NCBI GenBank assembly: GCA_951406725.2
Contig: OX597841.1
Location: 26,908,001-26,972,000 of the forward strand
Direction: 5' to 3'
Length of the DNA stretch: 64,000 nucleotides
Source: Octopus vulgaris
Taxonomy: Eukaryota
Positions 9,495-54,990 of the stretch are shown in pieces. Below the pieces are notes generated by a model. That model searched no databases. It saw only the letters and a list, made by a program, of their open reading frames with translations, and was not told where the DNA came from. Position 1 is the first letter of the stretch. The number at the start of each line of letters is the position of its first letter. The translations under genes and the position numbers were made by a program.

Positions 9495-9680
9495 CATGAT
9501 AGATCGTTAGCTTCTACACGCATTTTTTTCTCTCCTTGTTTTTTTCTGTGTCCCTTTCTGTGGAAGAGCGTAGGCTCGAAACGTAAAAGACATTTTCTAT
9601 TCCTGAGCGTTATACTAATACATTTGTTTGTTTGTACTCCACCTGCCTTCGTCTTTTGTTTATTTTCGTAAACTTTCCCT
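9495..9680 (+). mobile_element. ~190-bp element carrying a minimal hammerhead-like motif (9554-9589)
   Basis: cttt-CTGTGGA-A-GAGC-gtag-GCTC-GAAAC-GTA-aaag; copies at 13827-14005 and 48694-48893. Confidence 0.7.
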
Positions 9681-9932
9681 ATATATATATATATACATAC
9701 ATATGTATGTATGTATGTATGTATTCGTGCATCCTGGGGACACTGCTTTCAAGAACTTCTAATCGAATGAATCGGCCCCAGGACTTACATTATTTAAAGA
9801 CTGGTACCTACTCTGTCAGACTCTTTTGCCGAGCTGCTAGGTTGTCAAGCCGTTTTCAAACACACACACACGCACCTATATATGAGTGTATATATATATA
9901 TATATATATATATATATATATATATATATATA

Positions 9933-10306
9933 TCTTTATATATAAAAGTGAAGTTGTGTGTCTGTCTCCTCCGATTTAGATTCCTAACTACTCCCACAAT
10001 TTGCGGTGCAGTTTAACCAAAACTGGGTATCTCATAGTTGTGATTCATATCGAGCCCTTCTGGGTATTAGCACGCGTCTACGATGAGTCTACGATTTAAA
10101 AAAAAATTTACCATAATTTTTTTCCATTTTAATGCATTTTTTCGCTATTAATTAAGGGAAGTAACTCTCTAAAAATGTCTACGATGAGTCAACGATTTAA
10201 AAAAAATTTACCATCATTTTTTTCCCATTTTTTGCTATAACTCTCTAAAAATGCTTATATAGTTATTTCCCTTACAAACCCGAGCAACGCCGGGCGATAC
10301 TGCTAG
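9933..10306 (+). mobile_element. Non-autonomous Helitron family 1
   Basis: 5' TC, subterminal hairpin cccgagcaacgccggg, 3' CTAG, inserted between A and T within (TA)n. Confidence 0.85.
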
Positions 10307-11680
10307 TATATATACACAAACATATATATATATACACATGTATTATATATATGTATGTATGTGTGTGCATGCGCTCGTGCATATGTGAGTATGTATACAT
10401 GTATACATACAGGACCTTATAATACAATTGTGTGTATGAACCTATGCTCTTAGCTCTTAGCAATTTTTTTTCATATCTGTTTTCCTTAATCTCTGTGACG
10501 TCAGTTGTCAGGTGATCGACGATCCAACCAATCGGTTGAGAGTGGTACGATGCAACATCAAAAGTTGCCTTTATTTATTTACCAATTATTTATCTATTCA
10601 TCTAATCTAGCTTTGAATCTTTCGGTAATATCTCCACTGCCCCCCCCCCACCACCACCACCACCATCTCCTCTTGCACTTGTGTGAGTATGAGTATGAGT
10701 GTGTGTGTGTGCCTGTATGTGTGTGTGTGTGTGTGATAGTATACAGGCATAAGTAATCCGTGTTGTCTGAAGATCGCATATATATATTCGCAGTGATAAC
10801 ACGCTTGAAACCACGGTGAGGGCTTAATATTTGAGTTCACTATATAAACACACACACACACACACAAATATACATATATAGGTGTGGATATATTTGTATA
10901 ATTTTATGAATGTGTTTGTGTGTGTGTGTGTGTGTGTGTGTGTGTAACGCTTATAATATTAATAAATAGGATTAAATACCATATCTATGTTCTCTGTTAA
11001 AGTTATTACACGTAAGGTACATGCTATCGTTGCTGCTACGAAGTATCAAGTTCCATAGTGTGTATATATATATATATATATATATATATATATATATGTA
11101 CATATATATATATATGTATATATATTTATATATATATATATATATATATATATATATATATATATATATATATATAAATATATATATATGTATATATAAA
11201 TATATATATATATATATATATAAATATATATATATGTATATATAAATATATATATATATATGTATATATAAATATATATATATATATATATGTATATATA
11301 AATATATATATATATATATGTATATATATATATATATATATATATATATATATATATATATATATATATATATGTATATATAAATATATATATATATGTA
11401 TATATATATATATATATATGTATGTATGTATGTATGTATGTATGTATATAGACATTAGCACGCAGGCGTGGCTGTGTGGTAAGAAGCATGCCTCGCAACC
11501 ACATGGTGTTAGGTTCAGTCCCGCTGTGGGCCACCTTGGGCAGGTGTCTCCGACTACAACCCCGGGCCAGCCTAAGCATTGTTAGTGGATCTGGTAGAGC
11601 GAAAACTAAATGTGTGTATGTATATGTGCGTGTGTGTGTGTGTGTGTGTGTGTGTGTGTGTGTGTGTGTGTGTGTGTGAT

Positions 11681-12272
11681 GCGGCGCGCGGCTCAGTGGT
11701 TAGAGCGTCCGATTCGCAATCATGAAGTTGCGAGTTCAAATCCCGGACTGGACTGTGTGCTGTGTTCTTGAGCAAGACACTTTATTTCACGTTGCTCTAG
11801 TTCACTCAGCTGTAGAAATGTGTTGTGACGTCACTGGTGCCAAGCTGTATCGGCCCCTTTGCCTTTCCCTTGGATAACATCAGTGGTGTATATAGGAGAG
11901 ACTGGTATGCATTGGTGACTGCTGGTCTTCCATAAACAATCTTGCCCAGACTTGTGCCTCGGAGGGAAACTTTCTAGGTGCGAATCCATGGTCATTCATA
12001 ACTGTAGTAGGTCTTTCACCTTTACACTGTGTACATATAATGGTATAGAGGGGGGAGACTGGTATGCATGGGTGACTGCTCATGTTCCATAAACCTTGCC
12101 TAGACTTGTGCCGCGAAGGGAAACTTTCTAGTTGCAATCCCATGGTCATTCAGGACTGGGGGTGGGGGTCTTTCCCCTTTATCCTATGTAGTTATAATGG
12201 CGTGGAGAGAGGAGGCTAGTATGCATGGGCAACTGCGGGTCGTCCATAAACAAACTTACCCGGACTTGTGCG
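11681..12272 (+). mobile_element. tRNA-derived SINE family D with its 3' tail repeated three times; single-tail copy at 34507-34828
   Basis: ggctcagtggttagagcg and gagttcaaatccc boxes; tail ctggtatgcat..gactgct..ccataaac recurs near 11900, 12055 and 12215. Confidence 0.75.
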
Positions 12273-12274
12273 TT

Positions 12275-52393: not shown

Positions 52394-53165
52394 CTAAAGA
52401 TACCTACATCCACGCCATGCCGGTCTCTCTCGTCCTTCGGGAGGATATTGAAGAGCTGTGGACATCTGAAGCCCAGGCTATTGCAGTATCTTGTCCTACA
52501 TCTTGATGGAAAATTTAGAGTCCTTGGCACTATATAGTGGCACCCAATTCTAGTATTTGTGTAACTCTCGATGCCAAAGTTTGGGACAAGTCCTTCCAGG
52601 ATATTATGGCATATCTTTCTCGCCTACGCTCTAAGGAATAAAGCCGTGATCTCTTGAGTCTTTCCCCAATAGCTTATATGCTGCATAGAGGCTATCTTCT
52701 TCGTGTAGCTTCGTTGGATCGCCTCAAGTTCTGTGATTAACTTGACACTGGATGGTGACCATAGCTGAGAGCAATAGTCAAAGTGGCTTAGGACAAGTGT
52801 CCTCCAGAGGACCATCATAGTTTCCTGGTCTCTTGTTCTAAAAGTTCTAAGAATTCATCCGGTCAGCCGCCTGCATTTCATTGCTAACTTAGCAACAAGG
52901 ATGCATCATTACTCCTGTAAATACCCAGGTCTCGCACTGACTGTGTCTCTGGGATTGCAATCCCTCCAGGTCCAGTGTATTTAATGGGTATTGCATTTAG
53001 TTTTGCATGCTGATAGCAAAAGGCTTGACAATTTTCAGCATTGAACTGCATGCTATTCTTTTCAGTCCACTTGTATATTTCATCTAGCTCACATTGCAGG
53101 TGCTTAGTGTCTTCAGGGTTCTGTATTGCCTGTGAAACTTTTGTATCATCTGCATAACTGGTGAA
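52394..53165 (-). pseudogene. Decayed CR1-like LINE reverse transcriptase C-terminal fragment
   Basis: FTSYADDTKV...IYKWTEKNSMQFN...SVRDLG...LVLSHFDYCSQLWSP...LEAIQRSYTKKI, with frameshifts and stops. Confidence 0.9.
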
Positions 53166-53849
53166 ATATACGCATATATATAAATAATATATATATGCAT
53201 ATATATTATTTATAAAAATATATGCATATATTATTTATACATATGTATTATTTATATATACAAATTCATACACACACACACACATATATATATATATATA
53301 TATATATATATATATGCATATATATATATATATGCGTATACGTGTATATAGGTATCGATGGAGTAATTGGTTGACGTTAAAAGACAACTGGAGAGTATAT
53401 ATATAAAGACAATGAGAGTATATATATAAATACACACACAGAGGTATATATATAAATACAAAATGGGACAAAAGCGCAAAGCATCCAGATAGACGATACA
53501 TAAAACACGGACGGGTCATTCGAAGCCTTCAATCTTCAGTCAAGAACCGGATCATCCTCGCAATTTCGGCTGATTAATCTTGAGATTGCTCCAATCTGGC
53601 CAGTCCCAAAGAAAAACTAAGCTACGAGCATTAGATTCCTTGGAAAAAAGCATCGAATGTATACGAAACAAAGAGAGAAAAACGGACGATGTTACACGAA
53701 TATGAATACAAAAGTAATACAAAAAACAATAATAATAATAATAATAATACTAATAATAATAATAATAATAATAATAATAACAATAATAACAATAATAATA
53801 ATAATAATATTAATATTAGGACACACACACACACACACATATATGTATA

Positions 53850-54030
53850 TACGGGATGCGTTCAAACACTATCCGACAAACCTTTTTCCCGCCAAAACTC
53901 TTTCCGTGTAGGAAAAATCCTTTGAGAGGGAGGTGACGGTTCTTTTCCAGCACATGCGTGAAAATTTTTCGCGCTGATGAGTCTTGTCGGTTCCCGGCTG
54001 TTACACCTAGAGTGCAGAAATGGTGTGACA
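53850..54030 (+). mobile_element. Probable mariner terminal fragment
   Basis: tacgggatgcgttcaaacactatccgac resembles mariner terminal repeats. Confidence 0.4.
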
Positions 54031-54670
54031 TCGCGCCACCTTAATGATTATGCTAAGGGATTCCAAATATTGGTACAAGTCGAGCAAAAGGATCCCAGGA
54101 CCTTATTCTTTTGTAAGCCCAGTACTTATTCTATCGGTTCTCCTTTGCCGAACCGCCAAGTTACGGGGACGTAAACACACCAGCATCGGTTGTTTGTCAA
54201 GCGACGTTGGAGGGACAAAGACAGACACGCAAACATACACATATACATATATATATACGATGAGCTTCTTCCAGTTTCCGTCTACCAAATCAACTCAAAA
54301 GGCCTTGGCCGGCCCGGGGCTGTAGTAGAAGACACTTTCCCAAGGTGGCACGCAGTGGGACTGAACCCGGGACCATGTGATTGGTAAGCAAGCTACTTAC
54401 CACACAGCCACATGCTTGTTTTAATGTCCAGTTACAGTAAAAAGAAAAGAACAATTTTAGATTAAACTGACGAGGCTGTGTGGTAAGTAGCTTGTTTATC
54501 AACCACATGGTTCCGGGTTCAGTCCCACTGCGTGGCACCTTGGGCAAGTGTCTTCTACTATAGCCTCGGGCCGACCAAAGCCTTGTGAGTGGATTTGGTA
54601 GACGGAAACTGAAAGAAGCCTGTCGTATATATATATATATATATATATATATATATATATATATATATAT

Positions 54671-54990
54671 ATATTGTTATATTTCGGAATGGTCATATTG
54701 CCAGTTTAGCCAATAAAAACACACGCACTATATATTTGGTGTTATTTTGCTTCAGTGATATTTATTTTTTACATTAATCTTAATCTTATTTCGGCCAAAG
54801 TTCTTTCGTCACACTCCTGTGACCGCATCAGTGGTCCTTTGTTTTCTTCTCACTTACTTGTGTCTCTCCTTACTAACCGTCAGCCATTTTGTATTTATTG
54901 GCTAAACTGGCAATATGACCATTCCGAAATATAACAATATCTGTTTCAACACACGACTTCACATAAAAAATCTTGCACAACAAATATTTA
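54671..54990 (-). mobile_element. Insertion in the (TA)n of a SINE-A: perfect 47-bp inverted repeat enclosing a degenerate hammerhead (54793-54836)
   Basis: Arms 54671-54717 and 54894-54940; cca-CTGATGC-G-GTCAC-aggagt-GTGAC-GAAA-GAACTT-tgg. Confidence 0.65.

Follow-up and report, generated by a model that had tools for sequence, protein, structure and literature searches.

Most hammerhead-like motifs in a TA-rich stretch of octopus DNA very probably mark truncated 3' ends of Penelope-like elements

The window analyzed here is a 64-kb stretch of DNA from Octopus vulgaris (G000:C28:26908001-26972000, in a genome of 2.8 Gb) that carries nine sequences resembling type I hammerhead ribozymes (HHRs). 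We are confident that seven of the nine lie at the 3' ends of Penelope-like element (PLE) families, comprising three Hydra-type and two Neptune-type lineages, that have copies encoding a reverse transcriptase (RT) and a GIY-YIG endonuclease (EN) elsewhere in the genome, and that the pieces within the window are probably 5'-truncated insertions made by the enzymes of those elements. The basis for this assignment is the continuity between tail and coding sequence in other copies, variable 5' truncation, inverted pieces, 3' ends that meet (TA)n, and an optional tail that corresponds to the 5' leader of the element. The elements are as follows, where L numbers denote loci elsewhere in the genome, the number given for each core is its first nucleotide, and LTR denotes long terminal repeat.

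9491 to 9679, + strand: family A, a Neptune-type PLE represented by a pseudo-LTR piece from its 3' end; minimal HHR with core at 9558 (A6U), predicted cut after 9585; 91-92% identical to L279/L297
13825 to 14012, - strand: family A copy; core at 13956 (A6U), predicted cut after 13929; 96.8% identical to L279 and 96.3% to L297
20841 to 20978, - strand: family B tail of 138 bp, inverted; this sequence also lies behind the 3' end of other copies and ahead of the open reading frame (ORF) of long copies
20979 to 21347, + strand: family B, a Hydra-type PLE represented by its 3' end; canonical core at 21222, 54-nt stem II, ACAUAUGU, predicted cut after 21294
22666 to 22858, + strand: family C, a second Hydra-type PLE represented by its 3' end; canonical core at 22745, ACGAUCGU, predicted cut after 22822
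26781 to 26815, - strand: E, a solitary relic of HHR-like sequence; stem II, ACAG-C-CUGU and a canonical core are present, with no stem I beside the core and no TA flanks
36954 to 37140, - strand: family A', a Neptune-type sister lineage represented by its 3' end; core at 37082 (U4C), predicted cut after 37056
42313 to 43043, - strand: family D, a third Hydra-type PLE represented by its 3' end; core at 42684 (U4C), 100-nt stem II, ACAGCUGU, predicted cut after 42566
48695 to 48895, - strand: family A copy; core at 48819 (A6U), closing pair of stem I broken
54674 to 54994, - strand: F, 321-bp repeat with fixed ends; inverted repeat of ~48 bp, optional tail, degenerate HHR with core at 54831 (A9C)

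We searched the window with a descriptor for type I HHRs requiring at least 4 bp in stem I and at least 3 bp in stem II. The strict core gave two matches, compared with 0.0 in the controls (60 block shuffles and 30 Markov-3 sequences). The relaxed core C[UC]G[AU]NGA, chosen after the motifs had been seen, gave six, compared with 0.017 in the block shuffles and 0.033 in the Markov-3 sequences. The original prediction named nine motifs, and hammerhead-like sequence is present at all nine places, but only two, at 21222 and 22745 on the + strand (both CUGAUGA), combine a canonical core with the remaining features of a type I HHR, that is GAAA, NUH and stems I-III. Six have variant cores. A6U is found at 9558 (+ strand, CUGUGGA+A) and at 13956 and 48819 (- strand, CUGUCGA+A), U4C at 37082 (CCGACGA+A) and 42684 (CCGAAGA), and A9C at 54831 (CUGAUGC), the last three being on the - strand. 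At 48819 the stem I pair adjoining the core is also mismatched, while the ninth motif, at 26815 on the - strand, has the canonical core without stem I beside it. The four stem III palindromes that had been quoted are correct. A further family flanked by TA, with CUGAAGA at 35547 (+ strand), 48495 (- strand) and 53539 (- strand), was rejected as an HHR as no GAAA..NUH follows. These are three copies of a ~300-bp repeat near (TA)n that lack the second core and have no Rfam match.

The motifs had been assigned to about six unrelated elements of 150-500 bp. There are indeed several families, but 9558, 13956 and 48819 belong to one, and 37082 is its relative (~75% identity to the same Neptune ends over 89 nt). 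The size range does not hold for the family D element, which is ~730 bp long and split by an insertion at about 42820-42880. Most elements had been described as bounded by (TA)n, but 26815 is not bounded by TA, and 13956 and 37082 have TA at the 3' end only. The elements were said to have no recognizable ORF. A tblastn search of the window with three PLE proteins as queries gave 0 matches to PLE coding sequence.

Outside the window, seven of the nine motifs continue upstream into PLE coding sequence in other genomic copies of their own or a sister family, so that the proposed link to PLEs stands. Family B gave 2689 first-look candidates, with the best copies 98-99% identical, and 98.7% identity links the window copy to L072 at its 3' end, a locus with a 713-aa frame encoding RT and EN. 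A B-type HHR lies ~0.6-0.8 kb after the stop codon in 11 of the 20 EN-bearing regions selected for long frames. The inverted tail at 20841-20978 is arranged as described by Craig 2021 (PMC8557442). For family D (1785 candidates) RT and EN lie ~2 kb upstream in L121 and L123, to which the window piece is 95-96% identical, and for family C (1733 candidates) the C-terminus of a Hydra-type EN lies ~1.4 kb upstream in L191. Copies of B share their 3' end, and 5' extents vary in all three families, ranging over 326-1831 nt in B, 141-558 nt in C and 167-1688 nt in D (11 copies each). Hydra-type motifs are present in the ORFs: D has IRWKI (RWK) and SDKTS (DKT), and a sibling of B has SDKTR with RIRWL upstream (L084/L085). 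The CxxC and CxH motifs around the E and N of the endonuclease are found in B, D and C. The linker motif CxCX5C is present in D, lies beyond the sequence obtained for C, and is absent from 24/24 B-clade ORFs (L052-L091), in which the linker between RT and endonuclease is 126-183 aa long with 35-52% Asn plus Ser and contains a zinc-finger motif in none of the 24.

The Neptune-type connection is seen at L087, a bystander locus where an A-like end lies ~0.6 kb behind a broken Neptune-type ORF. The L087 endonuclease was used as a query, giving 13,786 candidates, of which 30 loci were returned. In 21 of the 30 matches listed (the query locus included) an A-type HHR lies 91-1005 bp downstream of the Neptune EN match, and such ends are up to 96.8% identical to a window copy. 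In L304, L305 and L310, frames of 643-1098 codons lie between two HHR-bearing pseudo-LTRs, which in L305 are 99.5% alike. L301 encodes ADKGG (DKG), the linker CSRPRCRTC (CX2-5CxxC), an RVT_1 match (E = 1e-7) and, at the C-terminus, GIY-YIG (E = 0.077). A sister copy of A' is located ~2.8 kb downstream of Neptune RT/EN in L311, across a CA-rich untranslated region (UTR). Longer copies, which the original prediction proposed to look for, exist for A, B and D, where upstream of the end with the HHR a single ORF encodes RT followed by a C-terminal GIY-YIG, with only the EN end for C and one sister locus for A'. Other hallmarks of EN-bearing PLEs are also present, namely direct repeats of pseudo-LTRs (L304, L305, L310), inverted 5'-truncated pieces and optional tails.

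A search with the GIY-YIG family found other Neptune-type families whose ends are unlike those of A or A'. Many of its matches, including L217 and L222, belong to a very young Neptune-type family with many open frames of 781 codons, and by eye the 3' end of that family has a possible U3-A8 hammerhead variant.

Targeting of (TA)n, as originally proposed, is borne out. (TA)4 occurs within 30 nt of the 3' end in 37/48 copies of A, 38/40 of A', 16/31 of B, 24/47 of C and 13/23 of D, compared with a background of 4.7%, and copies without it mostly have (TA)4 after a tail of fixed length. We estimated abundance from 56 stretches of 10 kb at round coordinates (560 kb). These contain 16 motifs, compared with 0-1 in shuffles, a density of 1.8 per 64 kb that extrapolates to about 80,000 hammerhead-like motifs in the genome. 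At least four further HHR families occur in this sample (L127, L132, L168 and L171), two of them as inverted pairs. The window had been described as densely populated, and its six motifs do exceed the sample density (Poisson p = 0.011), but per tract of (TA)6 or longer it is average (0.030, compared with 0.034 in the sample). The density is therefore explained by the TA richness of the window.

A plausible mechanism is that the endonuclease would nick (TA)n, and a short TA-like stretch at the end of the pseudo-LTR or tail could anneal there and prime reverse transcription. Early termination would usually leave a 5'-truncated copy, and priming from the second strand would generate an inverted piece. 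Where two pseudo-LTRs share a transcript, the hammerheads may cut the element's own RNA as dimers formed through the palindromic stem III. It is said that Lunse et al. in 2017 found PLE hammerheads to cleave as dimers. The lone copies in the window are likely to be inactive, silent passengers, because minimal HHRs are described as giving no cleavage as monomers and low cleavage as dimers (PMC4209133). The truncation, the (TA)n ends and the position of HHRs at PLE 3' ends agree with Craig 2021 (PMC8557442) and Cervera 2014 (PMC4209133).

Published work already describes hammerheads in PLEs, stem III palindromes, targeting of (TA)n and Hydra PLEs in octopus, and the window motifs are real, abundant and of a known kind. 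Compared at the level of element class, they are already catalogued as PLE terminal repeats. Hydra PLEs with HHRs and (TA)n insertion include an octopus member, Hydra-1_Obim of Octopus bimaculoides (PMC8557442). Our Hydra-type families resemble that clade in the C-terminal GIY-YIG, DKT, RWK, CxxC-E-N-CxH, insertion at (TA)n, a type I HHR near the 3' end and stem III like ACAG..CUGU. They are unlike the published Hydra elements in their length (about 3.5-5 kb with long 3' UTRs, rather than <3 kb), in a stem II of 54-100 nt, in the U4C of D, and in the B clade, where the Asn/Ser-rich linker has CxCX5C in 0/24 ORFs yet the elements end in (TA)n. HHRs in PLE pseudo-LTRs are described as mostly single dispersed motifs of truncated copies, in which stem III is palindromic and position 9 is followed by an additional base (PMC4209133). 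Our Neptune-type families share with the Neptune (or Nematis) elements described there DKG, YIDD, the CX2-5CxxC linker and two pseudo-LTRs, as well as a minimal HHR with ACGU, the extra nucleotide between 9 and 10.1, G10.1-C11.1, and motifs that are mostly solitary and scattered remains of truncated PLEs. They are unlike them in having CUGUNGA (A6U) in A and mostly U4C in A', where the available main text of that paper names only the U3-A8 core variant. An account of 31 recently active PLE families in O. vulgaris mentions no ribozymes in the part available (PMC13282606).

Several observations weigh against this assignment. The link of A' to coding sequence is a single locus of a sister subfamily, and for C we reached the EN end but no RT upstream. 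Genome searches found neither a parent of E nor a coding parent of F. Pfam did not recognize the Hydra-type ORFs, and the names Hydra and Neptune are assigned by motifs rather than by a tree, with Neptune and Nematis not separated. The 5' ends of A cluster 79-92 nt before GAAA in 10/11 copies, and those of A' at 62-117 nt in the 28 copies measured, which could mean that short master elements exist. Finally, the covariation evidence is uneven. In 20 B-clade HHRs, hand-chosen from 34 distinct ones, 10/35 pairs change on both sides, and the covariation score is reached by 0/500 shuffles (the count of double-changed pairs by 19/500). In 17 HHRs of A and A' it is weak, with 1/11 pairs and a score reached by 9/500 shuffles. 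The shuffled control ignores the relatedness of the copies.

The clustered 5' ends bear on a different explanation, that the ~200-bp pieces of A and A' and the 321-bp F are genuinely non-autonomous, with transcription starting from solo pseudo-LTRs and PLE proteins mobilizing them in trans. This is possible, but we regard it as doubtful. A' was found in 7/56 of the sampled stretches and PLE coding fragments in 0/56 (three queries), and F keeps both ends and the same internal junction in 10/12 loci. On the other hand, copies of A and A' at L010, L245 and L066 continue into the 3' UTR, which is CA-rich, there are long A elements whose ends are nearly identical, and a stop hot spot beside the low-complexity UTR would account just as well for the clustering. 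For B, C and D this explanation cannot hold. The originally proposed non-autonomous, retrozyme-like system is not supported for these three families, while non-autonomy is possible for F and for the short forms of A and A'. That the elements are non-LTR retrozymes processed into circular RNAs seems improbable. They resemble such retrozymes in having type I HHRs in short non-coding units of 200-400 bp and a PLE origin, retrozymes being derived from PLE pseudo-LTRs (PMC7229834; bioRxiv 10.64898/2026.07.22.740005), and a two-unit repeat with HHRs occurs elsewhere in the genome. This locus, L108 (G000:C14:53213538-53217185), has a 559-bp unit present twice, head to tail. The two copies are 99% alike over 456 bp, each has a canonical HHR (ACGUACGU), and the locus is either retrozyme-like or a partial PLE tandem. 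But retrozymes are defined in those texts by tandem repeats and circular RNA, whereas the ends of coding elements in the window are single and truncated, belong to different families and lie 1.5-10 kb apart, and no HHR-bearing tandem repeat occurs there. Same-strand pairs within 1.5 kb are also rare in the fetched loci (A 2/64, A' 6/48 with one locus counted twice, B 0/53, C 2/48, D 0/32).

It is still less probable that the lone motifs cut host transcripts, for example as heterodimers of the copies at 13956, 37082 and 48819. These share the ACGU palindrome and the minus strand, and the genome holds a great many motifs, but all three carry A6U or U4C, no host gene was shown in the window, and the low activity of minimal HHRs cited above also argues against it. 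Chance matching in AT-rich DNA is the explanation to which we give least weight. Rfam gave no match at the gathering score on the whole window (where the list by E-value was swamped by microsatellite-like miRNA matches), and it found nothing of relevance when given four short stretches, nor any hammerhead family in two elements examined singly. Folded in isolation, A, A', E and F do no better than shuffles (z -1.5 to 0.1). Against chance stand the excess over shuffled sequence in both the window and the 560-kb sample and the conserved position at element ends. The window scan and the links to coding elements refute chance for seven motifs, and it is plausible for 26815 only.

What may be new is the core of family A, a Neptune lineage with U fixed at position 6 of a putative ribozyme. 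The search anchor spanned G8 onward, leaving positions 3-7 free, and U6 is present in 36/36 Neptune-linked A copies, which vary at position 7 (U21/G6/C6/A3) and at position 17 (A21/U14/G1). Over all loci CUGUNGA is found in 56/65 copies with a four-base loop and C4 in 43/52 with a three-base loop. Shared descent alone could fix U6 in this lineage. U4C and A6C (kobs < 0.1/min) are known as weakly active natural core variants (PMC3088659), and the available part of that work has no A6U fixed across a very large retroelement lineage. Literature searches found no hammerhead A6U paper among the matches listed, although the variants of Lunse et al. 2017 and the supplement of Cervera 2014 may already hold it. 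We suggest, tentatively, that there is a recently active Neptune-type lineage with fixed A6U and a Hydra-type lineage that targets (TA)n without the proposed linker zinc finger, and that A6U either cleaves, as a dimer or with the assistance of protein, or is in a fold kept without catalysis.

As a class these motifs are known genomic debris, left by PLEs in large numbers in one genome. With this analysis, ribozymes have been mapped in at least five more PLE lineages, all from octopus. The matched natural variants in young elements (canonical in B and C, U4C in D and A', A6U in A, A9C in F) would allow a direct test of whether PLE hammerheads must cleave and, if true, the fixed A6U lineage is a natural test of what they are for.

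The two remaining motifs are E and F. E has two matches in the genome, one being E itself and the other covering 43 bp over the motif. The unique DNA around 26815 had no cover in three presumed RNA runs, which we have not used as evidence. F has 21 matches in the genome, and position 9 of its core is A in only 2/12 loci, one of which lacks G8. F is the best non-autonomous candidate in the window. A PLE-type structure probably fits F better than that of a miniature inverted-repeat transposable element, since one arm of the repeat is set ~55 bp in from the end and some 3' ends stand alone.

Some other features of the window may be noted. By eye, the sequence at 59415-59634 (+ strand) is closely similar to the 3' end published for Naiad_Obim, and it is followed by (TA)n. 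It has GAAAC before CUGAUGA, an HHR half core, and gave no match in Rfam. Three tandem arrays, at 28372-29919 (107 bp x 14.5), 37903-38737 (176 bp x 4.8, with a SINE-like unit) and 43738-44634 (230 bp x 3.9), contain no HHR by descriptor. Contigs from presumed RNA runs cover family B and other repeats; they do not fix ends, strand or locus and were not used as evidence. A fragment of a non-PLE, LINE-type reverse transcriptase lies at 52444-53165.

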